From Polaromonas sp. (GTDB taxonomy: Bacteria; Pseudomonadota; Gammaproteobacteria; Burkholderiales; Burkholderiaceae_C): a stretch of DNA of 64,000 nt. Shown piece by piece: positions 1,881 through 58,216 of this stretch. A model generated the notes under the pieces. The model had not been told where the DNA came from and did no database searches. It worked only from the letters and a program-made list of their open reading frames with translations. Position 1 is the first letter of the stretch; each line of letters opens with the position of its first letter. The stretch lies in the NCBI GenBank assembly GCA_043747295.1, contig JAYTPK010000168.1, positions 9,121 to 73,120 of the forward strand, read 5' to 3'. The translations under genes were made by a program, and so were the position numbers.

Positions 1881-1948
1881 CTATCAAATTAATAGCTGTC
1901 TAAGCAATGAATACTTGGACTACAAAGCTATTTAGCACCTAAAAGCGC
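1881..1948 (-). repeat. dispersed repeat family, copy 1 (intergenic)
   Basis: CTATCAAATTAATAGCTGTCTAAGCAATGAATACTTGGACTACAAAGCTATTTAGCACCTAAAAGCGC matches the reverse complement of the family core. Confidence 0.8.
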
Positions 1949-1958
1949 ACTCAACAGC

Positions 1959-2477
1959 TTAAAAAGTACCTACATAGTCCTTCTTACCCACATCCACGCC
2001 GTTATGCCGCAAAACGCTGTACGCCGTAGTGGTGTGAAAGAAAAAGTGTGGCAGTGCGTAGTTCAGCAAATACGACTGACCCGTAAAACGCTTTTCTTTT
2101 GGTGTACCCGCTTGCGTCACGATCTCGCGTGTGGCGGCTTGGTCAAACGCTGCCACGTCTAAGCTGGCCATAAATTTTATAACCGCTGCAATACGCTCTT
2201 GCAGTTGGTCAAACGTTAGTTCTGTGTCAGCCATCACAGGCACTTCTACACCGGCTAGGCGTGCGGCAGCGCCTTTGGCAAAATCGCAAGCTACTTGCAC
2301 TTGGCGCAGCAAACCAAACATGTCAGGAAACAACCGCGCCTGCAGATATGCGTTAGGGTCAATACTTTTAGCAGTGGCATGCGCCTGCGCCTTGGCTAGC
2401 ACGGCACTCAGACCGCCCAGCAGCTGGGTAAAAACTGGCACGCTGGCGGAATACATCATGTTGGAGGTGGTGGTCAT
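1959..2477 (-). CDS. DUF1993 domain protein
   Basis: 172 aa. MTTTSNMMYSASVPVFTQLLGGLSAVLAKAQAHA and the C-terminal FFFHTTTAYSVLRHNGVDVGKKDY are typical of DUF1993. Confidence 0.8.
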   Translation of the reverse strand: MTTTSNMMYSASVPVFTQLLGGLSAVLAKAQAHATAKSIDPNAYLQARLFPDMFGLLRQVQVACDFAKGAAARLAGVEVPVMADTELTFDQLQERIAAVIKFMASLDVAAFDQAATREIVTQAGTPKEKRFTGQSYLLNYALPHFFFHTTTAYSVLRHNGVDVGKKDYVGTF

Positions 2478-2650
2478 GAAAAGCTTTCTGTATGGATAAA
2501 AGTAGGCGTATGCTGTGCAAAACTAAGCTCGATTGTCGCCGGGATTGCAGCGCAGATACCAGCGTAACCAAAAAAGCCTTTGGCTTGCGCCACAATCTGA
2601 CCAGTTCATCTTAATTGCCTACTTCAAAGCTTCATCTCCAACACTGCCCC

Positions 2651-4015
2651 ATGGACCAACTGCAATCGCTGCTCAATAGTTTTTTTGCTTTCAAAGCCTA
2701 CGTGATGCTGCCCATCATCATCTTTGCTATCGCGCTGGCCGTGCGGTTGCCGCTGCAGCAGGCGCTGCACAGCAGTGTGTCGCTAGCTGCTGGCTTTGCT
2801 GGGGTGTTTATTGCATTTAACTTCTTCGTAGCCAATATCAGCCCTGCAGTGCAGCAGCTGTCTACGGTGCGGGGCTTAAGCTACCCGGTACTAGATGTGG
2901 GCTGGCCTCCGCTGGCGGCCATCACCTGGGCATCGCCACTGGCCATCATCTCGATACCGATGGTGCTGGTGCTAAACCTCACCATGCTGGCACTGGGCCT
3001 TACGCGCACGATCTACATTGATATTTGGAACTACTGGCACTTTGCCTTGCTGGGCGCATTGGTGATGACCAGCACAGGCAGCATGGCGCTGGGCTTGTCG
3101 GCCGTAGTGATTGTGGCGGTGTATTGCTTCAAAATGGCCGAATGGTCGGCACCTGATATTGAGCGTGAGATGGGCTTGAAAGGCATCTCAGCGTCACCTG
3201 TGTCCGTCAATGGCTTGGTGCCCTACATTGCTTGCATGGAGTGGTTGATTCAGCGCACACCACTTAAATCGGTGGGCTACTTTCCACAGCGCGATACTCA
3301 GCCTGGCCAAGAGCGTGCAGGCCTTAGTATCGTCAGCTTGCTTAGCGAGCCTATGGTGATGGGCCTGTGCATGGGTATCGCGCTAGCACTGGCTGCGGGC
3401 TATGGTGTGCAAGCTACGCTAGAGTTGGGCGTGCACATTGCAGCGGTGATGTTTATCTTGCCCCAGTGCGGGGGTTTAATCGGCAAAGCCATGATGCCCA
3501 TTACCAGCGCGTTGCGTGACCAAGTGACGCGCCGCTTTCCCAGCCGCACTAACCTCGTGGTGGCGCTGGACACCGGTTTTTTGATGGGCCACAGAGCCGT
3601 CATCATGACGGGGCTGATATTGATGGCCTTGGCCATTGTGATTGCGCTCATTTTGCCCGGCAACAAAGTGCTGCCACTGGGAGATTTGCCCAACCTGATC
3701 TCAGTCATGTCGCTGGCTGTGCTGATGCTGCGCGGCAATGTGCTGCATGCAGTGCTGACGGGTATCCCGGTGATCATCACATTTTTGCTGATTGCGTCTG
3801 ACATGGCACCGCTGTACACCAGCCTTGCACTTAAAACACCGTCATTTAACGCCCAAGGCTTGGGGCAAATTACCGCTTTCACCGACGGTGGGCACCAAGT
3901 GCGTTATGTGCTGTTTGCGCTGTACCAAGGCCAGTTGTGGGCTTGGCTGGCGCTGGTGGGGTTGGTAGCAGCCAGCGCGCTGGCTTGGCGCAGGTACGTT
4001 CGCGCAAGCGCTTAG
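2651..4015 (+). CDS. PTS galactitol-family EIIC-like permease (GatC homolog), orphan
   Basis: Multi-TM protein. LDVGWPPLAAITWAS and YIDIWNYWH match E. coli GatC segments (VDVGWPGSSPMTWAS, NVDIWNIWH). ATG at 2651 within ORF 2615..4015. Confidence 0.8.
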   Translation: MDQLQSLLNSFFAFKAYVMLPIIIFAIALAVRLPLQQALHSSVSLAAGFAGVFIAFNFFVANISPAVQQLSTVRGLSYPVLDVGWPPLAAITWASPLAIISIPMVLVLNLTMLALGLTRTIYIDIWNYWHFALLGALVMTSTGSMALGLSAVVIVAVYCFKMAEWSAPDIEREMGLKGISASPVSVNGLVPYIACMEWLIQRTPLKSVGYFPQRDTQPGQERAGLSIVSLLSEPMVMGLCMGIALALAAGYGVQATLELGVHIAAVMFILPQCGGLIGKAMMPITSALRDQVTRRFPSRTNLVVALDTGFLMGHRAVIMTGLILMALAIVIALILPGNKVLPLGDLPNLISVMSLAVLMLRGNVLHAVLTGIPVIITFLLIASDMAPLYTSLALKTPSFNAQGLGQITAFTDGGHQVRYVLFALYQGQLWAWLALVGLVAASALAWRRYVRASA

Positions 4016-4051
4016 ACCCTCGCGCCAGCACGTAATTTGTTTGCTGTTATC

Positions 4052-4081
4052 TTATTTACCGTTAACTTATTTGCCGTTGAT
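4052..4081. repeat. 15-nt tandem duplication spanning the FKBP gene stop codon
   Basis: TTATTTACCGTTAAC followed by TTATTTGCCGTTGAT (12/15 identical). The second unit holds the real stop and last 4 codons (INGK*). A weaker third unit may lie upstream. Confidence 0.6.
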
Positions 4082-4528
4082 GGCCAACAGTTCAACTTCA
4101 AAAAGCAGCGTAGCGTTAGGTGGAATCACACCCCCCGCACCGCGCGAGCCATAGGCAATAGCCGCTGGGCAAGTTAGCTTAGCCTTGCCGCCCACTTTCA
4201 TCATGCCCACGCCCTCGGTCCAGCATGGGATAACGCGGTTCAGCGGGAACTCGGTAGGTTCACCGCGCTTGTAGGAGCTGTCAAATTCTTTGCCATCGGG
4301 AAAAGTGCCTTTGTAATGCACTTTTACTTTATCGCTGGCTTCAGGGCTAGCGCCCTTGCCTTCGGTCAGGGCTAAATACACCAAGCCGCTTTTAGTCACC
4401 ACTGCGCCTTTTTCTTTGGCAGACGCGGCAGCCACGGCATCGGTTTGGGCCAAAGACACACTGCACACTGACAACAAAGCCACGGCCAAAGCTGATGACA
4501 ATCCAGTCGAATGGGTAGAAAAACGCAT
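4067..4528 (-). CDS. FKBP-type peptidyl-prolyl cis-trans isomerase, secreted
   Basis: Signal peptide MRFSTHSTGLSSALAVALLSVCSVSLAQ. FKBP motifs VHYKGTFPDGKEFDSSY and YGSRGAGGVIPPNATLLFEVELL. Confidence 0.9.
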   Translation of the reverse strand: MRFSTHSTGLSSALAVALLSVCSVSLAQTDAVAAASAKEKGAVVTKSGLVYLALTEGKGASPEASDKVKVHYKGTFPDGKEFDSSYKRGEPTEFPLNRVIPCWTEGVGMMKVGGKAKLTCPAAIAYGSRGAGGVIPPNATLLFEVELLAINGK

Positions 4529-4620
4529 AGGGAGTCCTTTAATAAAATGCAGGAAAGATTACATGCCAAATCTTATCAGGTGATGGGCTTGGCGGCAGCG
4601 TTGCTTGCGATCACAAGTGC

Positions 4621-7557: not shown

Positions 7558-8703
7558 GTGAAAAATTACACAAAATTTGGGCGCTCGCTTGTCGCCTTAT
7601 TGCTTACAAGTAGTGTGCTTTGCAGCACAACAGCGCATGCCGAACCCGGCGTAGGTACGAACGAAATTGTTATCGGGCAAAGCATTGGTTTGCAAGGCGG
7701 CAAAGACGCTTTTGCTGTTGCAGTCAACCAAGGCGTTAAGCTGTACATAGACTCTGTCAATGCAGCAGGTGGTGTGTCGGGGCGCAAACTGATCATCAAA
7801 GCACTGGATGACGAAGGCAAAGGAGCCACAGCAGAGGCCAATGCCCGCAAACTGGTCGACGAAGGCGTATTTTTACTGTTTGGCTCTATTGGCGGTGGCC
7901 CAAGCACGGGGGTGATGAAGGTCGCTAACGAAAAACAAATCCCGTTCTTTGGCCCAATGGCTGGCTCGCCAGTGCTGCGCCGCCCACACCAAGCCATGGT
8001 GTTCCCGGTGCGCGCCGAGCACCGCGAGGAGTTTCGCAGCTTGTTAACTGCCGCTAAAAGCCTGGGTTTGACCAATGTGGCGTTTATGTACAGCGACTCT
8101 GAAGTTGGCAAGATGCACTTAGAAAATGTGAAGATTGCTACCAAAGATTTTGGCCAGCAGCTGGTGCTGCCTATCCCCGTAAAAGGCGACACCACCGATG
8201 CGCAGCTGGACGAGGCGGTAGCTGCCATGGAGAAAAACAAAGTCACCGTCCTGCTGCACAACGCACCTGGCAAGCTGTTTGCCAAAGTGGTGCAAAAAGC
8301 CAAAGCCAAAGGCTTGACGATTCAGTTCATGGGCGTGAATCAAGAGTCGTTTGAAATAGCCAAAATGCTTGGCAAAGATGCGGATGGCATTACGTTTGCC
8401 CAAGTGGTGCCCAGCCCATGGCAACGCAAACGCGAGCTGGCGCGTGAATACCAAGAGATGGCCAGCAAAGCAAAAATTGAGCTGAACTATGGCAGCTTGG
8501 AGGGTTTTATGACCGCCAAGGCACTGGTGATGGCGCTGCGGTCCACTGGCAAACAGCTTACCCGCACCAGCTTTGTCAAAACCGTGGAGCGCAGCGAGTT
8601 TGACCTGGGTGGGCTGATTGTTAAGTACACGCCAGGTGACCACCAGGGCTCCAAGTTTGTAGATTTATCACTGCGCTCACGTGATGGTATTTTTTTGCAT
8701 TGA
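7558..8703 (+). CDS. ABC transporter substrate-binding protein, Leu/Ile/Val-binding family, orphan
   Basis: GTG start 8 nt after AAGGAG. Signal peptide ends in AHA. EIVIGQSIGLQGG and the overall pattern fit type-I periplasmic binding proteins. No permease gene is adjacent. Confidence 0.8.
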   Translation: MKNYTKFGRSLVALLLTSSVLCSTTAHAEPGVGTNEIVIGQSIGLQGGKDAFAVAVNQGVKLYIDSVNAAGGVSGRKLIIKALDDEGKGATAEANARKLVDEGVFLLFGSIGGGPSTGVMKVANEKQIPFFGPMAGSPVLRRPHQAMVFPVRAEHREEFRSLLTAAKSLGLTNVAFMYSDSEVGKMHLENVKIATKDFGQQLVLPIPVKGDTTDAQLDEAVAAMEKNKVTVLLHNAPGKLFAKVVQKAKAKGLTIQFMGVNQESFEIAKMLGKDADGITFAQVVPSPWQRKRELAREYQEMASKAKIELNYGSLEGFMTAKALVMALRSTGKQLTRTSFVKTVERSEFDLGGLIVKYTPGDHQGSKFVDLSLRSRDGIFLH

Positions 8704-8788
8704 TAGTGTTTATAGCTATATGCTACTAATTTCATAGCTGCTTAAGTAGTAAATACTTGGACTACAGCCCATTTAGATAGGTAAAAGG
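8704..8788 (-). repeat. dispersed repeat family, copy 2 (intergenic, with internal partial duplication)
   Basis: ...TTTCATAGCTGCTTAAGTAGTAAATACTTGGACTACAGCCCATTTAGATAGGTAAAAGG. An extra ATAGCTATATGCTAC segment lies at the 5' side. Confidence 0.8.
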
Positions 8789-8834: not shown

Positions 8835-9368
8835 TTAGCCGCGCAGCTTAGTGGCCACCTCAGCAACGCGCTTGCCATAAGCCTGCGCTGTGTCCAAATC
8901 GCCCTGCGGGATTTTGTCTGCTGGGTCGTTGGGGCCGCATTGCGCCATCACACCGCTGTAAGAGCCGATACGGTTAATGTTGCCGTCGCCCATCATAGGC
9001 TGGCCAACCCATACCATGCCTTGCTGCATGGACAGGGTGATGAAGTATTGCAGGGTAGACAACTTATCGCCGCTCAAGCCCGCAGACACTGTGAAGCCAC
9101 CGGCCACTTTGTCTTTCCAGGCGCTGCTAAACCACTTTTTGCTGCTGGCATCGGCAAACTTTTTAAACTGCCAGCTGGCCATACCCATGTAGGTGGGGCT
9201 ACCCATGATGATGCCATCTGCTGCATCCAACGTGGCCCATTGCGCGTCGGTGAGGTTGCCGTCTGCATCGATAGCGACCAGGTCTGCCCCTGCGCCTTTG
9301 GCTACAAATTCAGCCACACGCTGGGTGTGACCATAACCTGAGTGATAAACAACTGCTACTTTTGCCAT
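8835..9368 (-). CDS. flavodoxin-fold NAD(P)H:quinone oxidoreductase (WrbA-like)
   Basis: MAKVAVVYHSGYGHT start resembles WrbA/flavodoxin. ATG at 9368 follows AAAGGAGAA. The longer track ORF (to 9473) overlaps the upstream gene and is rejected. Confidence 0.8.
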   Translation of the reverse strand: MAKVAVVYHSGYGHTQRVAEFVAKGAGADLVAIDADGNLTDAQWATLDAADGIIMGSPTYMGMASWQFKKFADASSKKWFSSAWKDKVAGGFTVSAGLSGDKLSTLQYFITLSMQQGMVWVGQPMMGDGNINRIGSYSGVMAQCGPNDPADKIPQGDLDTAQAYGKRVAEVATKLRG

Positions 9369-9381
9369 GAGAAATTCTCCT

Positions 9382-9642
9382 TTATTTGGCGGTTTGGGGA
9401 TGAGGTGGCGCAGGCATCTGCACCGTAAGAGAGACAAGTTTTTGCACCAGCGGTCTAAAGGCAAATGCCACAAAAAACGCTACTGGAAAAGCCACTAACC
9501 AAGCTTGTAACCAGCGAACAAAGTAGCCCACAGCTAAGCCTGTGTTAACGGCGGTGATCATGCCACTCATCAACACGCTCATGGTGAGCGACATCCAAAA
9601 GGCTATGGCGATCGGGGTATATTTAGGATGTAATTTTTTCAT
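9382..9642 (-). CDS. DUF2798 membrane protein
   Basis: 86 aa with two TM segments. MKKLHPKYTPIAIAFWMSLTMSVLMSGMITAVNTG is typical of DUF2798. Confidence 0.75.
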   Translation of the reverse strand: MKKLHPKYTPIAIAFWMSLTMSVLMSGMITAVNTGLAVGYFVRWLQAWLVAFPVAFFVAFAFRPLVQKLVSLTVQMPAPPHPQTAK

Positions 9643-9661: not shown

Positions 9662-10545
9662 TTAATGGGTGAAAAGGATTCAAGATGCCCCATCTCGCCG
9701 CGTGCAAAGGCACGCCTGTAAGCCAAAATATCATCTGCCGAGTTGCCCGTGAACGGGCCACCTGAGTAGATTGGCTCTTTGATCGGCGTGCCGCTGAAAA
9801 ACACGCCACGCAATGCCTGTTTGCCTGCCTTGATGCGCGCCAAGCTCATGGCATATGCGTCAGACGCTTCAAAAATAATAGCGCTTTGTGCAATATCCGC
9901 CTGGACTTGCGCATCAAAACTGCCTGACCTAATAACAAAAAACGCGTTATCACCTGATTTAACAGGAATGTCCACCTGCGCTCCCGCTTGCAAAGTCACA
10001 TCGAGCAAGTTGACACGGGTAAGCCAGCGTGCATCTTGTCCAATCGGTGAGTAATGACCGCCCAACTCACCCGCCACCACGCGCAGGCTGCCACCTTCAA
10101 AGTCAACAACTGGCATGTCGGTGTGTTTGACTTTAAAAGCCACAGGCTCGGTGGATTTATGAACTCGACTCAGATTCACAAACACCTGCAAGCCCTGCTC
10201 AGTTTTACCCGCCTGCGCTGGTGTTTCTTCATGCATTGCGCCGCGCCCGGCTTGAAACCAATGCAAATCGCCAGGTTCAATCAAGCTGTGATCGCCCATC
10301 GAATCGCGGTTGACCGTGCCTGCCTCAGATTCAGGCAAGGTGAGCGAGACAGCGCTCATGCCTGCATGCGGATGTGGGCCAAACGGGTTAGAGCGCAGGG
10401 TATAGCTGTCAATGCCGATGAAGGGGTCGATCCAGCTTGCGTCCACACGCAACATATGCGCACCCGAGCTGGCATCAAAGCCGTGATAGGGCATGGCCAC
10501 GACGGCCTTGATGGTCAAGAGAGGATGAAGTTCTGCTCCGCACAT
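9658..10545 (-). CDS. pirin family protein (divergent copy)
   Basis: Cupin-type HPHAGMSAVSLTL and the C-terminal pirin domain are present. ATG at 10545 follows AAGGAA. The TTG at 10566 is less likely. Confidence 0.7.
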   Translation of the reverse strand: MCGAELHPLLTIKAVVAMPYHGFDASSGAHMLRVDASWIDPFIGIDSYTLRSNPFGPHPHAGMSAVSLTLPESEAGTVNRDSMGDHSLIEPGDLHWFQAGRGAMHEETPAQAGKTEQGLQVFVNLSRVHKSTEPVAFKVKHTDMPVVDFEGGSLRVVAGELGGHYSPIGQDARWLTRVNLLDVTLQAGAQVDIPVKSGDNAFFVIRSGSFDAQVQADIAQSAIIFEASDAYAMSLARIKAGKQALRGVFFSGTPIKEPIYSGGPFTGNSADDILAYRRAFARGEMGHLESFSPIN

Positions 10546-18244: not shown

Positions 18245-18364
18245 GGAATTCCTTGGATTTCAATAATTACTGAAATTATAAGAAACTCAAAGAAATATAC
18301 AAGGGTTATTACTTATTACCTGCGCTGTCAGCAGGTGAATAGCCATGGTTGGGCTCGGTATTTA

Positions 18365-18448
18365 CTATCGATTTCATAGCTGTCTGAGTAATGAATACTT
18401 GGACTAACAGCATATTTTGTTGGTAAAAGTGCCGTTTTAGTGCTTTTT
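18365..18448 (-). repeat. dispersed repeat family, copy 3 (intergenic)
   Basis: CTATCGATTTCATAGCTGTCTGAGTAATGAATACTTGGACTAACAGCATATTTTGTTGGTAAAAGTGCCGTTTTAGTGCTTTTT. Confidence 0.8.
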
Positions 18449-18480
18449 GTGGTTCTTTGTATTGGGACGCGATCTGCTGC

Positions 18481-19928: not shown

Positions 19929-20954
19929 TTGAGTGCCGCAGTCGAAGTGGCAAGCTTGCGAACCAGTTACGTCGGACGTTTTGCGCCCTCACCTACCGGG
20001 CCACTGCACGCAGGATCGCTGGTAGCGGCGCTGGCCAGCTGGCTTGATGCGCGTGCGCATGGCGGCCGCTGGCTAGTACGCATCGAAGACGTTGACACCC
20101 CCCGCTGCGTGCCCGGTGCTGACCACAATATGCTGCAGCAGCTAGCGCAGTGCGGTTTGGTCCCCGATGAGCCACCGGTGTACCAGTCGCAGCGCGGAGT
20201 ACATTACCAGGCCGCCCTAGACACTCTGAAACTGGCGCAATATGCCTACCCCTGCACTTGCTCGCGCAGTGATATTGAAGCCGTGTGGCAAGCCAGGGGC
20301 TTAGCCAAACCGCGCCATGGCGAGCTGATCTACCCGGGCACTTGTCGTCACAGTGCTGCGGCTGTTGATAACCTGCAACGTAGCCCTGCTTGGCGTTTTA
20401 AAACTGACTTTTCACAACAAAATCAGCCTGTAGTCCAAGTATCTGCTACTCAAGCAGCTATTAAAGATATAGCAAGCACACTTCAACCTTGCGCCGCAAT
20501 TGTAGATTGGACAGATCGCCGCTTGGGCCCGCAAACGCAATCGGTGGCCACCGCAGTGGGTGACTTTGTACTGCGCCGCGCTGACAGCCTGTGGGCGTAT
20601 CAGCTGGCTGTGGTGGTAGACGATGCGCTGCAAGGCGTTACCCACGTGGTGCGAGGTGAAGATTTAGCCGACAACACCGCACGGCAAATCTTGCTGCAGC
20701 ATGCGCTGGGCTACCCCACACCGCGGTACCTGCACACGCCACTGCAACTGGCAGCGGATGGACAAAAATTGTCTAAACAAAATGGTGCTCAGGCACTTCA
20801 ACTTGGCAGCACAGAGGCAGCGTCCAGCGCTTTAATACAGGCTGCAAAAGCACTAAAACTTAATCCAAATGGATACAGTTATGCCAATAAATCAAACTAT
20901 CTGGGACAATTGTTGCCTAATTTGTTGACACAATGGAAAACCATCTACTACTAA
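19929..20954 (+). CDS. gluQ: tRNA glutamyl-Q(34) synthetase
   Basis: [51 protein letters not shown] and KLSKQN match GluQRS. TTG start is uncertain. It carries an in-frame repeat-derived insert. Confidence 0.9.
20398..20477 (+). repeat. dispersed repeat family, copy 4, translated in frame inside gluQ
   Basis: AAAACTGACTTTTCACAACAAAATCAGCCTGTAGTCCAAGTATCTGCTACTCAAGCAGCTATTAAAGATATAGCAAGC encodes [26 protein letters not shown]. Confidence 0.75.
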
Positions 20955-23577: not shown

Positions 23578-24399
23578 ATGAGCGATATTTCTCCCCTTCC
23601 CCCAGCCACTGTACCTGCAGCAGCAGACACCGCAGTACCCACCACCCCGCATCCCAAAGCCCGCCCCATTCGCAGCTTTGTGCTGCGCACCGGCCGCACC
23701 ACCGTAGGCCAAGCCAAAGCACTGGAGGATTTGGGCCCTCAATATTTGCTGCCGTATCAATCAAACGCTATAGATTTAATAGCTGTACAAGCAGTAAATA
23801 CTTGGACTACTGGCCAAAATGCTACTCAAACCATCCTAGAAATCGGTTTTGGCATGGGCGAAGCCACAGCACACATTGCCAAGCTGCTGCCGCAAGCTTT
23901 GTACTTGGCCTGTGAGGTGCATCCACCCGGTGTGGGCGCGTTGCTCAAGCGTATTGGTGATGAAGGCATTGGCAATATTCGCATCATTCAGCACGATGCC
24001 GTGCAAGTGCTAGAGCACATGCTGGCGCCAGACAGCCTAGACGCAGTGCACATTTTCTTCCCCGACCCTTGGCATAAAAAACGCCACAATAAACGCCGCT
24101 TGATCCAAGCGCCCTTGGTCAAATTGCTAGCCTCACGCATTAAGCCTGGCGGCTATATCCACTGCGCTACCGACTGGGAAAACTACGCCGAGCAAATCTT
24201 GCAAGTGCTGACCGATGAGCCGCTGCTCTCCAACACGGTGCCCGGCACACCAGCCACTGGCACCGCACCTGCTACTGGCTATGCACCCAAGCCGGATTAC
24301 CGACCGCTGACGAAATTTGAAAACAGGGGTATTAAGCTAGGCCACGGAGTATGGGATCTGGTGTTTAGACGCAACATGGCGCACAGTTCAGGTGCATAG
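23578..24399 (+). CDS. trmB: tRNA (guanine-N7)-methyltransferase
   Basis: ILEIGFGMGEATAHIA, FFPDPWHKKRHNKRRL and ATDWENYAE are TrmB motifs. ATG at 23578 within ORF 23524..24399. Confidence 0.9.
   Translation: MSDISPLPPATVPAAADTAVPTTPHPKARPIRSFVLRTGRTTVGQAKALEDLGPQYLLPYQSNAIDLIAVQAVNTWTTGQNATQTILEIGFGMGEATAHIAKLLPQALYLACEVHPPGVGALLKRIGDEGIGNIRIIQHDAVQVLEHMLAPDSLDAVHIFFPDPWHKKRHNKRRLIQAPLVKLLASRIKPGGYIHCATDWENYAEQILQVLTDEPLLSNTVPGTPATGTAPATGYAPKPDYRPLTKFENRGIKLGHGVWDLVFRRNMAHSSGA
23768..23827 (-). repeat. dispersed repeat family, copy 5, translated in frame inside trmB
   Basis: CTATAGATTTAATAGCTGTACAAGCAGTAAATACTTGGACTACTGGCCAAAATGCTACTC encodes AIDLIAVQAVNTWTTGQNAT. Confidence 0.75.
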
Positions 24400-25773: not shown

Positions 25774-25851
25774 AAAAAGTAGCACTTTTACCCATCATAT
25801 TGGCCTATAGTCCAAGTATTTATTGCTTATATAGCTATGCAATTAATAGCG
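25774..25851 (+). repeat. dispersed repeat family, copy 6 (abuts the alaS stop)
   Basis: AAAAAGTAGCACTTTTACCCATCATATTGGCCTATAGTCCAAGTATTTATTGCTTATATAGCTATGCAATTAATAGC. Confidence 0.85.
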
Positions 25852-25853
25852 CA

Positions 25854-35346: not shown

Positions 35347-36360
35347 TTATTGCGCGGTGATGCCTGCCGTTTTGATCACGCGGGTCCAGCGATCTTTTTC
35401 AGATTTGACAAACGCGCTGTAAGCCGCAGCACCCAAAGTGGGCACCACAAAACCTGTGGACTCTAGGCGCTGCTTGAGTTCAGCACTTTGAATGGCTTTG
35501 ACCATTTCAGCCTCCAGCTTGTCAACAATCGCTTTAGGGGTACCTTTGGGCAGCGACATGCCTGACCACGACAGCGCAGAAAAACCGGGGTAGCCAGACT
35601 CACTGACGGTGGGTACATCAGGGTACAGCGGGTTGCGCTGCGCGCTAGATACCGCCAGCGCGCGCAGTTTGCCCGCTTTAACGTGCTGCAAAGCGACGTC
35701 TTGGTTGATGAACATCATGGGGATTTGGCCGCCCAGCAGGTCGGTCATCATCGGGCCGCCGCCACGGTACGGTATGCCCACCATGAACAGACCTTTGCAA
35801 TCGGTTTTACCAGCTGGGCAGGCTGACACGGTTTGCTTGAGTAACTCCATCGCCATGTGGCCAGACGCTGCATGGGTGTAGCCGTAATTGAGCTTGCCTG
35901 GGTTGGCCTTGCCGTAGTCCACCAGTTCTTGCAGTGTTTTAAACGGCTGGCTGGGGTGCACCACCAGCACGTTAGGCCCTGAGTTAACTTGCGTGAGGTG
36001 GATAAAGTCGTTGTTAGAGTCGTACTTTAAATTGGCATCCAGCCCATGGGCTACGGCGTTTTGCCCTACCCCAGTTTGCACGATGGTGTAACCATCAGCG
36101 TTGGCCTTGGAGCCGCGCTCTGTGCCAATCACGCCACCTGCACCGCCCACGTTTTCAACCACAAAGGGCTGCTTCATCGACTTGGTCAACGCGTCGGCCA
36201 TCATGCGGGCCATCACATCGCTGGTGCCACCTGGCGGAAAAGGTACGATCACTTTAACGGCTTTAGTGGGGTAGTCAGCCTGCGCCAGTGCCACGCCAGA
36301 CACTATAAAAAGCATAGCTGCTTGAGCAATAAATACTTGGACTACACGGTTATTTAGCAT
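35347..36360 (-). CDS. Bug/TctC family tripartite tricarboxylate transporter substrate-binding protein
   Basis: Mature start DYPTKAVKVIVPFPPGGTSDV is the Bug-family hallmark. The N-terminal 16-20 codons lie inside a repeat copy. Confidence 0.88.
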   Translation of the reverse strand: MLNNRVVQVFIAQAAMLFIVSGVALAQADYPTKAVKVIVPFPPGGTSDVMARMMADALTKSMKQPFVVENVGGAGGVIGTERGSKANADGYTIVQTGVGQNAVAHGLDANLKYDSNNDFIHLTQVNSGPNVLVVHPSQPFKTLQELVDYGKANPGKLNYGYTHAASGHMAMELLKQTVSACPAGKTDCKGLFMVGIPYRGGGPMMTDLLGGQIPMMFINQDVALQHVKAGKLRALAVSSAQRNPLYPDVPTVSESGYPGFSALSWSGMSLPKGTPKAIVDKLEAEMVKAIQSAELKQRLESTGFVVPTLGAAAYSAFVKSEKDRWTRVIKTAGITAQ

Positions 36361-36372
36361 ATAAAGCCTTCA
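36303..36372 (-). repeat. dispersed repeat family, copy 7, supplies the start codon and signal-peptide N-region of tctC
   Basis: CTATAAAAAGCATAGCTGCTTGAGCAATAAATACTTGGACTACACGGTTATTTAGCATATAAAGCC. On the minus strand it reads MLNNRVVQVFIAQAAMLFIV. Confidence 0.8.
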
Positions 36373-39745: not shown

Positions 39746-40660
39746 TCAAGTTGTGATGGCAAAAATAGGTTCGGGCAGGCCTTGCACGCCCGGGCGCAGC
39801 GCAAACACACCGCCCGCCAGCGGCTGGTCTGACAGGTCAATGCCTTCAGGCCGGATGGACGTGACAAACAGCGTGCGCATGTCGTCGCCACCAAAGGCGC
39901 ACATGGCGGGTTTTTTAACGGGCACGGCCAGCGACTGGTCTAACTTGCCTTGTGGTGTGAAGCGGTGTACCAAGCCTGCGTCGTTGCCGCAAATCCAGTA
40001 GCAGCCGTCGGCGTCCACCGCTGCGCCGTCTGGGCGGCCGGGCAGCGGGTGCATGTCCACAAATACGCGGCGGTTGGTAGGTGTGCCGGTTGCGGTGTCG
40101 TAGTCAAAAGCCCATACGGTTTGCACGCTGGGGTGTGAATCGCTCAGGTACATGGTGCGGCCATCAGGGCTGAAGGCTAGGCCGTTGGGCACTACCATGT
40201 GATCTACCAGCTGCCTTAAGTTACTATTATTTTCGTAGCTGGTTAAGCAGGGATTACCTTGTCCTACAGCCATATTGACCATCATGGTACCGGCCAAAAA
40301 CCGCCCTTGACGGTCGCAGCGGCCATCGTTAAAGCGCATGCCATGGGTGTTGTGTGGCGCAACAACTAGGCGCTTAACTTGCAAGTCACCACCCTGCCCT
40401 TGACCCGTGATAGGTGCAGGCGTGCGCAGATGGAAAATTCCACTCTCCATACCGGCAATCCAACCGCCCGCAGCATGCATGGCGATGCAGCCCAGCATCT
40501 CGGGCGCGGCCCAGCTTTGCACCTGCTCGCTACTGGCTTGCCATTGGTAGAGCTTTTTTTGCACAATGTCTACCCAGTACAGCGCTTTGTCTGCAGGGTG
40601 CCACACGGGGCTTTCGCCTACGCTGTTGCGGGCATCGACAATAAGTTCTGCGGTGCTCAT
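39746..40660 (-). CDS. SMP-30/gluconolactonase/LRE family lactonase
   Basis: [32 protein letters not shown] and [12 protein letters not shown] are beta-propeller lactonase motifs. Confidence 0.88.
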
Positions 40661-41540: not shown

Positions 41541-41611
41541 ATTTTACTACCGGGAGGGAGCTTGTCTAGTCATTGATTACCCTTGTTTGGCAATCGTCAC
41601 ACTACAAAGAA

Positions 41612-41700
41612 CCAGTAAAAGCACTAAAACATCACTTTTATCAATGAAATATGCTTGTAGTCCAAGCATTTACTACTTAGACAGCTATGAAATTAATAGC
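41612..41700 (+). repeat. dispersed repeat family, copy 8, supplies the last codons and stop of ispF
   Basis: CAGTAAAAGCACTAAAACATCACTTTTATCAATGAAATATGCTTGTAGTCCAAGCATTTACTACTTAGACAGCTATGAAATTAATAGCAC. The ispF stop (CTA at 41685-87) lies in the CAGCTATGAAATT core. Confidence 0.8.
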
Positions 41701-42167
41701 ACTGCAGCTCTAGCCTCGATGCTCAAGCCCTCACCTACCGGCCCCATCTTCTCTGCAGTTTTAGCCTTTACATTCACTTGCGATACCGCCACCCCCAATG
41801 CAGCAGCAATACGCTCGCACATCGCCGGAATGTGCGTTGCCAGCTTAGGAGCCTGCGCGATGATGGTGCTGTCGACGTTGCCAATTTGGTAGCCTGCAGC
41901 CCGCACGCGCCGTGCGGCTTCAGTCAGCAAAGCAATTGAATCTGCACCTTTAAACTGCGCATCCGTATCAGGAAAGTGACGGCCAATATCACCCAAGGCC
42001 GCTGCACCCAGCAGTGCGTCGGTGATGGCGTGCAACAGCGCGTCAGCGTCTGAATGGCCTAGCAAACCTTTGTCGAAAGGGATGTGCACGCCGCCCAGTA
42101 TCAGCTTGCGACCAGGTACCAAGGCATGGGTGTCCCAGCCTTCGCCAATTCGAAATGGTGTGTTCAT
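41685..42167 (-). CDS. ispF: 2-C-methyl-D-erythritol 2,4-cyclodiphosphate synthase
   Basis: [26 protein letters not shown] and [19 protein letters not shown] are IspF motifs. Confidence 0.95.
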
Positions 42168-47196: not shown

Positions 47197-47198
47197 GT

Positions 47199-47263
47199 CA
47201 TTTAGGTGCCAAATATGCCCGTAGTCCATGTATTCATTGCTCGAACAGCTATTAAATTGATAG
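47199..47263 (+). repeat. dispersed repeat family, copy 9 (intergenic)
   Basis: CATTTAGGTGCCAAATATGCCCGTAGTCCATGTATTCATTGCTCGAACAGCTATTAAATTGATAG. Confidence 0.75.
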
Positions 47264-47299
47264 AATCTAGCAAGCCATTAGAGGATCGAGCAGAGCAAC

Positions 47300-48184: not shown

Positions 48185-48385
48185 AGGGCTACTGCGGGTT
48201 GGTTTGGAGTTAAAGAATTATTAGATACTCAGTTTTTTACGATGCTTTATTCATTAATTATCTACTTTTTAAGAATTTTTAATCACCCTAAACTGCAATC
48301 TCCATTCGGCAGCGTCATCAGGGTTTTTTTAGTTTTGACGGCTGATTTATACATGTTGATTTTTTAACTGAGAAGGAATTTTTCA

Positions 48386-48694: not shown

Positions 48695-48734
48695 ACTTGC
48701 ATTAGCAATCTAGCAATGCAGGCGTGCCGAGCAA

Positions 48735-48764
48735 TTAGTTGATCAGCACTTAGTTGATCAGCAC
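48735..48764. repeat. perfect 15-nt tandem duplication spanning a lipoprotein gene stop codon
   Basis: TTAGTTGATCAGCAC occurs twice, giving VLIN* VLIN* on the minus strand. Confidence 0.9.
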
Positions 48765-49247: not shown

Positions 49248-49435
49248 AGCATGGCTCTCCCGTAAAATAACTGTACCTAGGCAGTTGACATACAACCGCC
49301 ATGACAGGTATTCAGCAACAACGCAGCGCAGCTAGCCGGCGTTGACTGCATGCCTGGCATGCCTACATGCTAGGCACTGTATTTACACTCCCTTTACATA
49401 TCGGTTCAGCCCGTATTTTTAACCTCAGCGCCTTT

Positions 49436-50149
49436 ATGTCTGCACACGAATACTCTCCCGGATTAGTTATTCAAAACTTTACTGCGCCATTGCAGTTAGC
49501 CCACTTTAAGTTGGCAGCATTTGATATGGACTCCACGCTGATTAACATCGAGTGCGTTGACGAGATAGCCGATGCAGCGGGTCGTAAAGCAGAAGTTGCG
49601 GCCATCACCGAGGCGGCCATGCGCGGCGAGATTACCGACTACAAAGACAGCCTGCGCCGCCGTGTAGCGCTGCTTAAAGGCGTTCCTGTTAGTGCGATGG
49701 AGCAGGTATACACGCAGCGCTTGCAGCTTAACCCTGGCGCACAGGTGTTGACGCAAGCTTTTAAAGCTGCGGGCATGAAGCTGCTTTTAGTGTCGGGTGG
49801 TTTCACGTTTTTTACGGATCGTATTCGTGATCGATTGCAGATCGACTGGGCGCGCTCTAACGTGCTGGAGATAGCCGATGGCCTACTGACAGGCCGCATG
49901 GTAGACCAGCCTTGGGGTGATATTTGTGACGGCGAACAAAAGCGCCTGACGCTGCTTCAGACATGCGCTGCCATGGGCATTGATGCATCGCAAACCATCG
50001 CAGTGGGTGATGGCGCAAACGATTTGCCCATGATGGGTGCGGCAGGTTTGTCAGTAGCCTTTCACGCTAAACCTGCAGTGCGTGCCAAAGCGATGGTGTC
50101 TATCAACACGGGTGGTTTAGACCGTGTTTTAGGGCTATTTACCAGCTAA
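49436..50149 (+). CDS. serB: phosphoserine phosphatase
   Basis: HAD motifs FDMDSTLI, LVSGGF and GDGANDLPM. ATG at 49436 within ORF 49367..50149. Confidence 0.88.
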   Translation: MSAHEYSPGLVIQNFTAPLQLAHFKLAAFDMDSTLINIECVDEIADAAGRKAEVAAITEAAMRGEITDYKDSLRRRVALLKGVPVSAMEQVYTQRLQLNPGAQVLTQAFKAAGMKLLLVSGGFTFFTDRIRDRLQIDWARSNVLEIADGLLTGRMVDQPWGDICDGEQKRLTLLQTCAAMGIDASQTIAVGDGANDLPMMGAAGLSVAFHAKPAVRAKAMVSINTGGLDRVLGLFTS

Positions 50150-50200
50150 ATCAGCCTGTAGTCCAAGTATTTATTACTTATATAGCTATTAAATTGATAG
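50140..50200 (+). repeat. dispersed repeat family, copy 10 (overlaps the serB stop)
   Basis: CCAGCTAAATCAGCCTGTAGTCCAAGTATTTATTACTTATATAGCTATTAAATTGATAG. Confidence 0.85.
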
Positions 50201-50207
50201 TGAAGCA

Positions 50208-51068
50208 TTACAAACCTAGCAACCTTACCGCGTTGCCTTTCAATATTCCCGGCATCACTTCAGGCTTAAACCCAGCTTCTTCAAAGTCTTTCATCCAACG
50301 CTCAGGCGTGATCAGCGGGAAGTCGCTGCCGAACAGCACCCGGTCTTTAAGCAGCGTGTTGGCGTAGTGCACCAGTTGCTTAGGAAAATACTTGGGGCTC
50401 CAGCCGCTCAGGTCAATCCACACATTGGGCTTGTGCGTTGCTACCGATAAAGCCTCGTCTTGCCACGGAAAACTCGGGTGCGCCATCACAATTTGCATGT
50501 CTGGAAAGCTAATCGCTACGTCGTCCAAATGCATGGGGTTGCTGTACTCTAGCCGCAGCCCACCACCACAGCGCATGCCGCTGCCAATGCCGCTGTGTCC
50601 AGTGTGAAAAATCGCTGGCAGTTTGTAGGCGTTGATCACCTCGTAGATCGGCCAAGCCATTTTGTCGTAGGGATGGTAGCCCTGTACAGTGGGGTGAAAC
50701 TTAAAGCCCTTCACGCCCTCTTGCGTAATCAAGCGCTCAGCCTCGCGTGCGCCTAGCTTGCCTTTGTGCGGGTCAATGCTGCCAAAGGCCATCATCATGT
50801 CGCTGTTCTCGCGCGCGGCCTGGGCTATTTCTTCGTTGGGTATGCGGCGACGGCCCATCTGCGCTTCGGCATCGACGGTAAACATCACTAGGCCGATTTT
50901 GCGTTCGCGATAATAGGCAATCGTCTCGGCAATGGTCGGGCGGCGGGCGTTTTTAAAGTACTTGTCGGCTGCGCGGTCATATTCTTCGCCATAGGCATCA
51001 AAAGGGTTCCAGCAGCTCACCTCGGCGTGGGTGTGGATGTCGATAGCGATCAGGTCTTGGTGGTTCAT
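50208..51068 (-). CDS. amidohydrolase family protein (amidohydrolase_2 / ACMSD-like)
   Basis: IAIDIHTHAE metal-binding start. FHTGHSG and MAHPSFPW are typical of amidohydrolase_2. Confidence 0.8.
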   Translation of the reverse strand: MNHQDLIAIDIHTHAEVSCWNPFDAYGEEYDRAADKYFKNARRPTIAETIAYYRERKIGLVMFTVDAEAQMGRRRIPNEEIAQAARENSDMMMAFGSIDPHKGKLGAREAERLITQEGVKGFKFHPTVQGYHPYDKMAWPIYEVINAYKLPAIFHTGHSGIGSGMRCGGGLRLEYSNPMHLDDVAISFPDMQIVMAHPSFPWQDEALSVATHKPNVWIDLSGWSPKYFPKQLVHYANTLLKDRVLFGSDFPLITPERWMKDFEEAGFKPEVMPGILKGNAVRLLGL

Positions 51069-52107: not shown

Positions 52108-53964
52108 ATGAGTGACATACCTGTTTATCGCGACTTTACTTTTGGCGTGACTCGCGCAGTGAAAACTGAGCGCGGAGGAAACACTTATTTGTCAGCCGAG
52201 CAGGCTTTGCAGGCTTATCCAGAACGCCTCACTGATCGCCTGCAGCACTGGGCGCACACCGCGCCTGAGCGCACTTGGATGGCGCGGCGCGATAGCACGG
52301 GCGTTTGGGTAAAAATCAGTTATGCCCAAGCTTGGGACAAAGCGCAGCGCATAGGCCAAGCCCTGCTTAATCGCGGGTTGGGCGTCGATAAACCCGTGGC
52401 CATCTTGAGCGAAAACAGCCTAGAACATGCCCTGTTGGCCATTGGCTGCATGACCGTGGGCGTGCCGTATTGCAGCGTATCCACTGCCTACAGCTTAATG
52501 AGCCAAGACTATGAAAAGCTGCGCCATGTACTGAGCACCATCACCCCGGGTTTGGTGTACGCCAGCGATTGGGCGCGCTACGGCAAAGCTATTGACGCTG
52601 TGCTGGGTGCTGACGTGGAAGTTGCTACAAATACCATAGCTACCCGAGCAATAAATACGTGGACTACCACCCTATTTGATGCACTTTTAAGCACAAATAC
52701 CACGCCCGCAGTCGCAGAGGCCATGCAGGCCACTGGCGGCGACACGATAGTGAAGTTTTTGTTCACCAGCGGCTCTACCAAGCTGCCCAAAGGCGTGGTC
52801 AACACCCAGCGCATGATTTGCGCTAACCAGCAGCAGATGGCGCAGTCCAAACCCAGCGTGTTTGACATTCCGCCCGTGCTGGTGGACTGGCCGCCCTGGA
52901 ACCACACCTTCGGCGGCAACCATGATTTCAACCTCGTGCTGTTCCATGGCGGCACGCTGTACATCAACGACGGCAAGCCCACGCCAGCTTTGATTGGCGA
53001 GACCATTCGCAACCTCACCGAGATTGCGCCCACGGTGTATTACGACGTACCGATTGGCTTTGAATATCTCGCCAACGCGATGAAGACTAACGCCGCGCTA
53101 CGTAAAAATTTACTCTCCAACCTGCGCATGTTTTTCTACGCGGGCGCAGCGCTGGCGCAGCCTATTTGGGACTCGCTGTATGAAACCCAAGAAAAAGAGC
53201 TGGGCTACCGCATTCCCATGACCACTGGCCTGGGCATGACCGAGAGCGCGCCGTTTGGCTTGTTTGTTACCAACACGCAAGTCAAGGCGGGCGACCTGGG
53301 CCTGCCCACGCCGGGCCTGGAGCTCAAGCTAGTGCCCAGTGGCGACAAATTGGAGGTGCGCTACCGTGGCCCTAACGTCACGCCCGGCTACTGGAAAAAC
53401 GAAGCCGCAACCCAAGAAAGTTTTGACGAAGAAGGCTTTTTTTGCACTGGCGATGCGGTCAAATGGATTGACGAGGCGGACATTCACCAAGGCCTGAAAT
53501 TTGATGGCCGCATAGCTGAAGACTTTAAGCTGTCCACCGGCACCTTCGTCAGCGTAGGGCCGCTGCGCGCCAAGGTCATTGCCGCTGGTGCGCCGCTGAT
53601 TCAAGATGTGGTGATTACTGGGCTGAATGAAAAAGAAGTCGGCGCGCTGATTATCTTAGCGCTAGGCCCCGCTAAAAAGTTTGCTGGCTTACCTGACAGC
53701 GCCACGATGAAACAAGTGGCTGAGCACGCCTGTATCCAACAAGCCATGGCAAACATGCTGACCACATTAGCCACTACTGCCACAGGTTCATCCAGCCGCA
53801 TTGCCCGCGCGGTGGTACTGACCGAGCCACCCCAGATCGACAAAGGTGAGATCACCGACAAAGGCAGCATCAACCAGCGCGCTGTGCTGACTGCTCGCGC
53901 TGCCTTGGTGCAAGCGCTGTATGCGGATACTGCGCCTCATTTGATCAAGCCTTCCCATGCTTGA
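52108..53964 (+). CDS. AMP-dependent acyl-CoA synthetase (feruloyl-CoA synthase-like)
   Basis: AMP-binding motif FLFTSGSTKLPKGV, plus GLGMTE and GDAVKWID. The overall layout resembles proteins annotated as feruloyl-CoA synthase. Confidence 0.8.
   Translation: MSDIPVYRDFTFGVTRAVKTERGGNTYLSAEQALQAYPERLTDRLQHWAHTAPERTWMARRDSTGVWVKISYAQAWDKAQRIGQALLNRGLGVDKPVAILSENSLEHALLAIGCMTVGVPYCSVSTAYSLMSQDYEKLRHVLSTITPGLVYASDWARYGKAIDAVLGADVEVATNTIATRAINTWTTTLFDALLSTNTTPAVAEAMQATGGDTIVKFLFTSGSTKLPKGVVNTQRMICANQQQMAQSKPSVFDIPPVLVDWPPWNHTFGGNHDFNLVLFHGGTLYINDGKPTPALIGETIRNLTEIAPTVYYDVPIGFEYLANAMKTNAALRKNLLSNLRMFFYAGAALAQPIWDSLYETQEKELGYRIPMTTGLGMTESAPFGLFVTNTQVKAGDLGLPTPGLELKLVPSGDKLEVRYRGPNVTPGYWKNEAATQESFDEEGFFCTGDAVKWIDEADIHQGLKFDGRIAEDFKLSTGTFVSVGPLRAKVIAAGAPLIQDVVITGLNEKEVGALIILALGPAKKFAGLPDSATMKQVAEHACIQQAMANMLTTLATTATGSSSRIARAVVLTEPPQIDKGEITDKGSINQRAVLTARAALVQALYADTAPHLIKPSHA
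52625..52692 (-). repeat. dispersed repeat family, copy 11, translated in frame inside the acyl-CoA synthetase gene
   Basis: CTACAAATACCATAGCTACCCGAGCAATAAATACGTGGACTACCACCCTATTTGATGCACTTTTAAGC encodes ATNTIATRAINTWTTTLFDALLS. Confidence 0.65.
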
Positions 53965-57525: not shown

Positions 57526-57602
57526 GCTCTTTATTGCGCCTCGCTGAGCCCCTTTTTATACGCTCAATAAGCCCCAAAGCTAGGCCCTAAGCGCCCCTGC
57601 GG

Positions 57603-57685
57603 TGCAAAAAGTGCAGCAAAAGAACCACAAAATTAGGGTTTGCGCCTAGTTTTGTTGCACAAGTAGCTATGATAGTTGTAGCATT
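57603..57685 (+). repeat. degenerate copy of the dispersed repeat family
   Basis: GCAAAAAGTGCAGCAAAAGAACCACAAAAT...CACAAGTAGCTATGATAGTTGTAGC keeps the flank and the AGCTAT..ATAG end. The GTAGTCCAAGTA core is lost. Confidence 0.35.
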
Positions 57686-57779
57686 TTTTGAAAAATGCGT
57701 TATATTTCAATCAGTTCGAGCCAAAAGCTCTTATTTCACATTACCCGCCAAAACAACTTATTCTTAGGAGAAGCCTCTC

Positions 57780-58091
57780 ATGAGCGCCAAGGACAATGCT
57801 GCTGTAAACCAACTGTTCGACTTGCTTGAGTCGCGCTTCGCCATCCGTGTTTTGTGGGCGCTCAAAGACGGCCACCCGCAAACCTTTCGCCTGCTACAAG
57901 ATAGCGTTGGCGGCATAACACCTAACACCTTGAACACCCGTTTAAAAGAAATGCGCGCTGCCGGTTTGATCACCCACGGTGACAACGGCTACGGCGTTAC
58001 CAGCAGCGGCGCTGACCTGCTGCGCCGTATGAACGAGATGAGCGCCTTTGCCACTAAGTGGACCAGCGCCCTCAAAGCCAAGAAGAAGTAA
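57780..58091 (+). CDS. HxlR-type winged-helix transcriptional regulator
   Basis: RFAIRVLWALKDGHPQTFRLLQDSVGGITPNTLNTRLKEMRAAGLI. 103 aa. AGGAGA RBS. Confidence 0.8.
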   Translation: MSAKDNAAVNQLFDLLESRFAIRVLWALKDGHPQTFRLLQDSVGGITPNTLNTRLKEMRAAGLITHGDNGYGVTSSGADLLRRMNEMSAFATKWTSALKAKKK

Positions 58092-58121
58092 GCTTCAAGG
58101 TTAGAATTACCTTTCGCCACT

Positions 58122-58148
58122 AAAGCAGCCGCTGAGGTTGCTTTTTTT
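58122..58148 (+). terminator. rho-independent terminator
   Basis: AAAGCAGCC-GCTGA-GGTTGCTTT stem-loop followed by a T7 run. Confidence 0.6.
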
Positions 58149-58149
58149 A

Positions 58150-58216
58150 TGCTTTTTCCAATCGAATAGCCTTGCAGTCCAAGTATTCATTACTTAAGCA
58201 GCTATCAAATTTATAG
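58150..58216 (+). repeat. dispersed repeat family, copy 12 (intergenic)
   Basis: ...GAATAGCCTTGCAGTCCAAGTATTCATTACTTAAGCAGCTATCAAATTTATAG. Confidence 0.8.

Follow-up and report, generated by a model that had tools for sequence, protein, structure and literature searches.

An old 66-bp interspersed repeat of Polaromonas with two lineage dialects and an apparent constraint on its DNA sequence

We analyzed a 64,000-nt stretch of Polaromonas DNA (contig JAYTPK010000168.1, positions 9,121 to 73,120), hereafter the window, which carries twelve intact copies of a short interspersed repeat. The copies belong to a genuine family of approximately 66-bp, AT-rich, non-palindromic repeats in a low-GC (~55%) clade of Polaromonas, and the family is apparently undescribed so far. 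They appear to be old, vertically inherited at fixed loci, and now immobile. A preliminary description of this DNA had recognized the family, but overlooked its main point: the repeat is subject to site-specific constraint at the DNA level and evolves in concert as lineage dialects. The combination of a non-palindromic unit, DNA-level constraint, and different dialects at orthologous loci is unusual. Our preferred explanation, to which we assign a probability of about one half, is that an ancient insertion-derived repeat has been kept as a site in double-stranded DNA that a co-evolving factor recognizes.

The existence of the family is not in doubt. All twelve copies reported earlier, six on each strand, match the 18-base degenerate core AGTCCANGNATNNNNTNCTNNNNNAGCTAT exactly, against an expectation of 0.00 in 100 shuffles. 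Repeat finding, fuzzy core search, and the degenerate pattern AGTCCANGNATNNNNTNCTNNNNNAGCTAT each led to the identical set. The start positions had been placed to within a few bases, except for a copy put at 8704 whose conserved unit begins at 8720, and the plus-orientation consensus proposed at the time is essentially correct. An information profile of 82 copies, taken from the window and related loci, delimits a unit of ~66-67 nt that opens with tTTTA, 23 nt ahead of AGTCCA, and closes with ATAGca, 43 nt beyond AGTCCA, with random flanks on both sides. Its consensus is tTTTAccaAtcAAAtAggCctGTAGTCCAAGTATTTAtTgCTcAagcAGCTATnAAATTnATAGca, and the per-position values of the 66-bp motif sum to ~83 bits. 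The twelve copies are single, lie 2-16 kb from their neighbors, and amount to approximately 1 per 5.3 kb of the window. Profile scores in the window are bimodal, with 50-62 bits for intact copies and at most 17.5 bits for the rest. The few weaker matches lie at 40221-40277, 57653-57684, and 59832-59860, and at least two decayed copies are present.

Some copies are longer. Two in the window (18362-18469 and 41595-41702, which are alike over ~105 nt) and about ten others carry a long left arm of ~40 nt extra, beyond which the long-form copies run on into other, unrelated repeats. The idea of 5'-truncation, as in retroelements, was ruled out, since most copies have a sharp left boundary at -23.

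The family extends well beyond the window. In a scan of one genome per species, at least 63 Polaromonas contigs with the core were found among the matches listed, and these contain more than 70 further copies in contigs of metagenome-assembled genomes (MAGs). Nearly all of the contigs listed derive from one glacier-stream MAG; three other Polaromonas MAGs are also represented. The matches thus place the host within the Comamonadaceae (Polaromonas). The Nostoc matches of the scan proved to be one conserved coding locus and one chance match rather than family members. The preliminary description had not recognized the sequence as a described family, and no catalogued family matched it in the collections searched here. 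Rfam gave no family match to any copy in the window, the 18.3-18.9 kb region, or three loci, at the gathering score or at E<=10, and permissive E-values returned only microRNA (miRNA)-like chance matches to unrelated long hairpins. BLAST against plasmids found no match to the family, and viral contigs yielded nothing beyond one chance match. Searches by sequence and by topic did not find the family in the searchable literature. The review PMC10969869 cites MITEs, or miniature inverted-repeat transposable elements, in Polaromonas JS666.

Substitutions are distributed unevenly over the unit. In nine pairs of orthologous copies within the clade, 76 of 279 family-variable positions were substituted (27%), as compared with 25 of 324 family-conserved positions (8%) and, within the 18-position core, only 3 of 162 (2%). 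Variable positions differ from conserved ones with Fisher p=1.7e-10. At the gluQ locus, the element is 78% identical between the window and metagenome contig L075, while the protein-loop sequence on either side is 58-67% identical. Three tracts of the unit (-22..-20, -12..-9, and +32..+35) are 91-100% A/T with A and T freely interchanged, a pattern that reflects neither RNA pairing nor coding constraint and fits read-out of double-stranded DNA shape. Conservation shows no 3-nt periodicity, and codons of the open frame are frequently invariant at their third position; the encoded peptide is therefore not what is conserved. These substitution patterns show a site-specific constraint that would act on the double-stranded DNA, not on a peptide or an RNA fold.

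A sister clade carries the same element with a different core. Contig L082, also at ~55% G+C and with genes 71-84% identical to those of the window, has five copies in 21 kb that keep the same architecture and share the core CCTCTAGCCCAAGtAAAtAaTGCACAGgCAGCTAT in place of the window core CCTGTAGTCCAAGTATTTATTGCTCAAGCAGCTAT; their signature is CTAGCCCAAG.AAA...TGCACAG. This second dialect also occurs in five independent metagenome contigs. Two of the five L082 copies are orthologues of the window copies in gluQ and trmB. The L081 orthologue of the copy at 58153 scores 41 bits with a hidden Markov model built from the five L082 copies, versus 17.5 bits with the window model. Both dialects are thus found at the orthologous gluQ, trmB, and hxlR-fkbP loci. 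Over the central 25 nt, identity is 52-60% between orthologues of different dialects and 68-88% between paralogues of one genome; locus-specific variants of the arms persist across dialects. The core has thus changed in parallel at separate, vertically inherited loci of the sister clade.

Such a parallel change, in the presence of locus-specific arms, excludes the re-insertion of whole elements. In addition, uninterrupted identity between copies does not exceed ~13 nt. RecA-dependent conversion needs a minimal efficient processing segment far above this length, and as a result RecA-type gene conversion is unlikely. Precedents for parallel change are provided by the Hin and Apl types of uptake signal sequence (USS; PMC1626085) and by the dialects of the DNA uptake sequence (DUS; PMC3630211).

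Comparison with related genomes indicates that the copies have held their positions for a long time. The window (~55% G+C) is syntenic at 82-92% nucleotide identity with the metagenome contigs L026, L075, L077, L079, and L083. Throughout the ~40 kb that is comparable with genomes 83-92% identical (L075, L077, L079, and L083), every copy is at the same locus and no clean gain or loss of a copy was seen; where the genomes differ, it is by larger indels that take in a copy or border on one. Relics of the element occupy the matching sites of gluQ, trmB, and fcs in Rhodoferax, Variovorax, and other Polaromonas. The extra gluQ segment, with recognizably related residues and DNA, is present in Rhodoferax, Variovorax, and GC-rich Polaromonas, and the trmB segment is likewise shared with Rhodoferax. 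For the feruloyl-CoA-synthase-like gene, the segment has equal length in all orthologues down to 72% identity and its likeness to the element fades gradually. The GC-rich relatives L073 (Rhodoferax) and L074 (Polaromonas) retain only relics of the AT-rich element and have a different repeat, which is GC-rich. When L082 was compared for an empty site, its MarR-upstream spacer was not alignable to the window.

Approximately 30% of copies fall inside genes. Of the frames of the consensus, exactly one is open, the sense frame S1 (FYQSNRPVVQVFIAQAAMKLI), and this allows coding copies to persist. Among 85 copies, 22 lie within long open frames in S1, where they encode ..PVVQV[FS][IT]AQAA[MI]K.IA, and four lie in the antisense frame that is used in trmB and the synthase. 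The antisense frame has one consensus stop, which is mutated to CAA or CGA in the trmB and synthase copies. Nine of the ten coding copies that were checked reside in recognizable proteins, with Pfam domains around the insert. In a related MAG, genes with an in-frame copy encode TIM, asparaginase, carboxyl transferase, fatty-acid desaturase, an EgtB-like protein, acetoacetyl-CoA synthetase, and HMA-MauE; in asparaginase and HMA-MauE, the copy falls in an inter-domain linker.

Several host proteins have extra length where the element lies. GluQRS exceeds E. coli GluQRS and GluRS by ~28 aa exactly at the element, and TrmB has 10-13 extra aa there compared with E. coli and the GC-rich Polaromonas L074. 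The TIM domain spans 257 residues versus 244 Pfam profile positions and the SGL domain 256 versus 245. Such alignments, in gluQ at least, show what would be an insertion origin of the element. In TIM and TrmB, an arm of the element overlaps native conserved residues, which hints that arms may be molded in place. An AlphaFold2 model of GluQRS has a mean predicted local distance difference test (pLDDT) score of 61.5 and a score below 50 in the insert region (147-207), where confidence is too low for placing the insert.

The persistence of copies in proteins invites comparison with the Rickettsia palindromic elements (RPEs), to which the in-frame copies had been likened. RPEs, as summarized in PMC10969869, are also short non-coding repeats that persist in frame in unrelated housekeeping genes and in spacers, with one permissive frame and old shared insertions. 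The likeness is apt for this behavior (22 + 4 of 85 copies), but does not extend to structure. RPEs are ~100-150 bp long, have palindromic ends, and belong to obligate intracellular Rickettsia. In contrast, the element is 66 bp long, has no palindrome, occurs in a free-living betaproteobacterium, is conserved at the level of DNA instead of peptide, and has lineage dialects. By the defining features of these classes, the element is not a MITE, a repetitive extragenic palindromic (REP) sequence, or an RPE, though it is RPE-like in proteins.

In the explanation that we favor, the family would have spread long ago as a short non-autonomous insertion, and copies would have survived where they were harmless, namely in spacers, at the ends of genes, and where a protein has a surface or linker segment. 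Each copy would now serve as a recognition site for a putative trans-acting factor that binds DNA and whose gene lies elsewhere in the genome. This factor would read the invariant blocks (GTAGTCCAAGTAT, CAGCTAT, and ATAG) base-specifically and the A/T tracts by shape or bendability. As the specificity of the factor drifted, its sites would follow through selection or molecular drive. Candidate factors include a domesticated transposase, a chromosome-organizing protein, and a DNA-uptake receptor. We infer the existence and nature of such a reader, as well as any selective benefit or drive, from the behavior of its presumed sites.

Several observations weigh against this explanation. The window holds nothing suggestive of a binding factor. 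The ~70 MAG copies were found through the core pattern, and the invariance of their core is therefore partly built in; the window copies and the orthologues of the constraint test were not picked in this way. The dialects are documented at three orthologous loci and in ~11 second-dialect copies. Not every copy is maintained: those at 40221 and 57653 have decayed, and so has the one in L077 that corresponds to 25786. The A/T tracts give no more than a suggestion of helical phasing, their autocorrelation being weak. In several proteins, the net gain is ~11-13 aa as compared with the 22 codons of the element, which simple insertion does not explain. Furthermore, the constraint could instead reflect short-tract gene conversion or the needs of an unseen transposase.

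The last of these possibilities corresponds to a selfish non-autonomous element, MITE-like or similar to the palindrome-associated elements of the IS200/IS605 insertion sequences (IS200/IS605-PATE), that is still mobilized in trans. Its conserved blocks would then reflect what the transposase needs, and its dialects would track transposase divergence, as in systems of paired REPs (REPINs) and their REP-associated tyrosine transposases (RAYTs). We regard this as rather unlikely. The element is indeed small (<300 bp), non-coding, and multi-copy, and therefore of MITE size. Like the Correia/NEMIS, ERIC, and Nezha MITEs, it is non-autonomous, reaches high copy number, occupies spacers and gene ends, sometimes supplies start or stop codons, and coincides with synteny breaks and, here, with a variable island. 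In common with REPs, the window dialect has GTAG 5' of the core, before a small inverted repeat, and forms lineage-specific, vertically inherited populations that could co-evolve with a single-copy protein. The earlier suggestion of MITE/REP-like behavior thus holds for a dispersed, non-coding, high-copy family, but not for the features by which such elements are recognized. There are no terminal inverted repeats: the ends (tTTTAcc... and ...ATAGca) are not complementary, and an inverted-repeat search returned copy-to-copy pairs only. In 82 copies, no target-site duplication rose above chance at any boundary offset for k=3-8, and no conserved flanking target was found. Whereas REPs are imperfect palindromes of 20-40 nt that are extragenic and usually paired as REPINs, the element has an unsupported stem of at most 5 bp, mostly with a T-G mismatch, occurs as single copies, is intragenic in 30% of cases, and has CTAG instead of GTAG in its second dialect. 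No parent insertion sequence is seen in the window, and there is no evidence of recent transposition. Polymorphic insertions are absent from the ~40 kb compared with genomes 83-92% identical, and coding copies are older than the genus splits. Old fixed copies should decay, yet the core changes by only 2%, and re-insertion does not explain why only the core switches dialect while the arms stay locus-specific.

A second possibility is that the repeat resembles a DNA-uptake signal, in which a competence receptor prefers the motif and biased uptake with homologous recombination drives sites to the current preference. Like the USS of Pasteurellaceae and the DUS of Neisseriaceae, the copies are split equally between strands, occur in genes and spacers, persist at conserved orthologous sites, and have a base-specific core flanked by A/T tracts (PMC1626085). 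Their two sister-clade dialects parallel the Hin/Apl USS types (PMC1626085) and the DUS dialects (PMC3630211). The arms of some coding copies also look molded onto native codons, as with LGAQ in TIM. However, known USS/DUS have cores of 9-12 bp, occur at ~1 per kb, and arise by point mutation without gaps, whereas the element is ~66 bp long (~83 bits), which point mutation cannot produce, is spaced at ~1 per 5 kb, and falls where protein alignments show insertions. It therefore fails the gap test that Redfield et al. (2006; PMC1626085) applied to USS, with gaps in GluQRS (+28 aa) and TrmB (+10-13 aa) and 13 residues over the profile in TIM. According to a preprint (bioRxiv 10.1101/2025.10.24.684340), known uptake sequences are confined to Neisseriaceae and Pasteurellaceae. 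An uptake signal of the known kind is improbable on these grounds. To our knowledge, competence has not been established in Polaromonas, which we also count against it. It is a little less probable that the repeat is functionless, with its uniformity and dialects arising from concerted evolution through gene conversion between scattered copies. In the core, the copies of one genome do resemble each other more closely than they resemble their orthologues in the other dialect, as conversion would predict. Against this stand the short identity runs, the locus-specific arms, and copy-specific variants that are stably inherited across genomes differing by 8-17%; conversion would also not yield A/T-only positions with A-T interchange. 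The remaining alternatives place function in a product. A structured RNA element in transcripts, such as a small RNA, 3'-untranslated-region stabilizer, or processing site, is very unlikely. Two small predicted stems (AGTA/TACT and GCTAT/ATAGC) have polymorphisms that are G-U compatible on the consensus strand only. Nevertheless, the consensus folds weakly on both strands without compensatory pairs (alifold -3.9 kcal/mol, 9 pairs), a mutual-information scan found no covarying pair, and the polymorphic stem pair T8/C8 versus A16/G16 varies independently (p=0.56). Shuffled columns pair as well as the left-arm hairpin does, the z-scores for folding single copies lie between -1.6 and +1.4 relative to shuffled controls, and the folds differ among copies. 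The AAAAG/CTTTT and AAGTA/TACTT hairpins proposed earlier are consequently without covariation support. The copies have no Rfam match even at E<=10, show no recurring sigma-70 promoter or intrinsic terminator, and lie in both orientations relative to the transcription of flanking genes. Least credible is a mobile peptide module selected for its product, for example a hydrophobic helix or signal-peptide segment. It is true that 22 of 85 copies share an open frame and that one provides a signal peptide. However, most copies are non-coding or antisense, the peptide at a given locus differs wholly between dialects while the DNA follows the dialect of the genome, the segment has a pLDDT below 50 in the AlphaFold model, and the lack of codon periodicity largely refutes the idea.

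A bolder form of the recognition-site explanation may also be considered. About a thousand 66-bp genomic 'self' signals might be read by a dedicated co-evolving DNA-binding system, either as a new uptake or recombination signal or as a chromosome-organizing site, and a shift in specificity between sister clades might have dragged along all sites, even those in essential genes. We put this forward only tentatively and think it more doubtful than the general form. If true, it would be a genome-wide signal of a kind undescribed outside Neisseriaceae and Pasteurellaceae and of unprecedented length. If the recognition-site explanation is right, a free-living environmental betaproteobacterium would carry hundreds of copies of a long DNA word, tolerated within essential enzymes such as GluQRS, TrmB, TIM, and carboxyl transferase, kept constant by selection on DNA, and rewritten in parallel at lineage splits. 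The RPE phenomenon of repeats embedded in proteins would extend beyond obligate intracellular bacteria. The repeat would likewise offer a clean natural system for the co-evolution of dispersed sites and their reader, so far tractable only for short uptake sequences and REPIN-RAYT. In practical terms, the motif offers a sharp marker of the clade for glacier-stream Polaromonas MAGs, where it is also likely to break contigs and to cause gene starts and stops to be called wrongly.

In the window, copies occupy spacers, the ends of genes, and coding sequence, in agreement with the earlier account. Five lie entirely between genes (1878, 8720, 18362, 47200, and 58153), four touch gene termini (36300, 41636, 50137, and 25786), and three are wholly intragenic and in frame (sense in gluQ, antisense in trmB and the feruloyl-CoA-synthase-like gene), with a decayed fourth in a gluconolactonase gene. 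The absence of a transposase or integrase was upheld for the 64-kb window by a Pfam scan of ~45 open reading frames (ORFs), the rest being covered by Pfam-annotated orthologues in L075 and L079; Pfam likewise detected no RAYT (TnpA_REP) gene in the window. The genes are metabolic or housekeeping, save for a PIN/VapC-type toxin fragment and a few ORFs without a Pfam match.

Among the intergenic copies, that at 1878..1944 (minus strand, 57 bits) takes up the 86-nt spacer that separates two convergent genes, 1282-1872 (+) and 1959-2477 (-), the latter encoding a DUF1993 protein. The minus-strand copy at 8720..8786 (62 bits) is flanked by two convergent genes, one for a periplasmic binding protein (7558-8703, +) and one that is flavodoxin-like (8835-9473, -), and comes directly after the terminator-like hairpin of the latter. 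The long-form copy at 18362..18469 (minus strand) comprises the unit 18362-18428 and a left arm of ~40 nt in the divergent spacer of MarR and amine-oxidase genes; orthologous copies are found in L075 and L083, and synteny with L075 breaks at its left edge. The plus-strand copy at 47200..47266 follows a PIN/VapC-like ORF by 3 nt and precedes the stop of a LysR gene. It is part of a 2.3-kb island (46460-48748) that is absent from the 82-90% identical contig L079 and contains a DUF6364-like ORF, a PIN/VapC C-terminal fragment, the LysR regulator, a zinc-ribbon protein, and this one repeat copy. At 58153..58219, a plus-strand copy separates an HxlR-type gene's terminator from the start of an FKBP gene; it has orthologues in L079 (same dialect) and L081 (second dialect).

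Copies at gene termini sometimes contribute the terminus itself. The minus-strand copy at 36300..36366 spans the 5' end of a TctC/Bug receptor gene (35347-36360, -), and its open frame gives the receptor its ATG and most of the predicted signal peptide, MLNNRVVQVFIAQAAMLFIV. The right end of the long-form copy at 41595..41702 (plus strand, unit 41636-41702) holds the stop codon of ispF (41685-42167, -). The plus-strand copy at 50137..50203, which has an orthologue in L079, lies between convergent genes; a HAD hydrolase gene (49367-50149) has its stop codon in the left arm, and 4 nt separate the end of the copy from the stop of an amidohydrolase gene (50208-51068). Finally, the plus-strand copy at 25786..25852 abuts alaS (25854-28529, -), between the alaS stop and the start of a small HNH gene (25389-25730, -), and synteny with L077 breaks at this copy. 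The HNH gene encodes a 113-aa protein with an HNH-endonuclease domain and is conserved in L077.

The in-frame copies are distributed over both strands. In gluQ, the plus-strand copy at 20409..20475 encodes a segment of 22 residues in frame S1, and its orthologues are found in L026, L075, L077, and L083 (same dialect) and in L082 (second dialect). The copy at 23765..23831 (minus strand; antisense frame, stop to CAA) encodes AIDLIAVQAVNTWTTGQNATQ in the N-terminal part of trmB and has orthologues in L077 (same dialect) and L082 (second dialect). The copy at 52622..52688 (minus strand; antisense frame, stop to CGA) encodes ATNTIATRAINTWTTTLFDAL in the feruloyl-CoA-synthase-like AMP-binding gene; it is conserved in L079 and decayed in L080 and L081. 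In L081 (10525-10696), the synthase has an additional insertion of ~32 aa exactly at the decayed copy, which suggests a hotspot for further length change. The acetoacetyl-CoA synthetase of L049, a distantly related AMP-binding enzyme, carries the element in the same antisense frame and at an equivalent position, ~25-35 residues before the P-loop motif in both enzymes. This reflects either a permissive loop or a target preference. Of the decayed copies, that at 40221..40277 (minus strand, E=2.8e-4) is in frame within an SMP-30/gluconolactonase gene (39746-40660, -). The degenerate copy previously placed at 57603-57685 is real but weak: only its right arm is recognizable, at 57653..57684 (plus strand, nhmmer E=0.003), and its orthologues in L079 and L081 also score weakly.

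Other repeats and variable genes were observed in the same DNA. A long imperfect hairpin with a ~38-bp stem (18468-18554) adjoins the long-form copy and is probably another structured repeat family, since L007 has the same hairpin with compensatory stem changes. A block of ~85 nt at ~18622-18707 (GGTTCGTTGTTTACCTTGGTCGGGCGGCGGGATCTATCGCTG), without an Rfam match, is common to the related-MAG locus L033, where it lies upstream of another long-form copy. Between gluQ and trmB, a DUF11/CLIPPER-type gene (21011-23497) varies in size from 348 aa (L077) through 827 aa (L075) to 1394 aa (L082), and is absent in L074. The GC-rich Polaromonas L074 has its own unrelated GC-rich spacer repeat of ~100 nt, at 2498-2598, 9904-9999, 12661-12762, and 15276-15338. 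A palindromic element of ~190 nt (60725-60916; 44-nt arms, 91% complementary, around a 99-nt center) is present between grpE and dnaK and accounts for spurious miRNA matches in Rfam. It recurs at L082 5343-5528 and L079 15359-15583, and represents a second dispersed family, of the terminal-inverted-repeat type.

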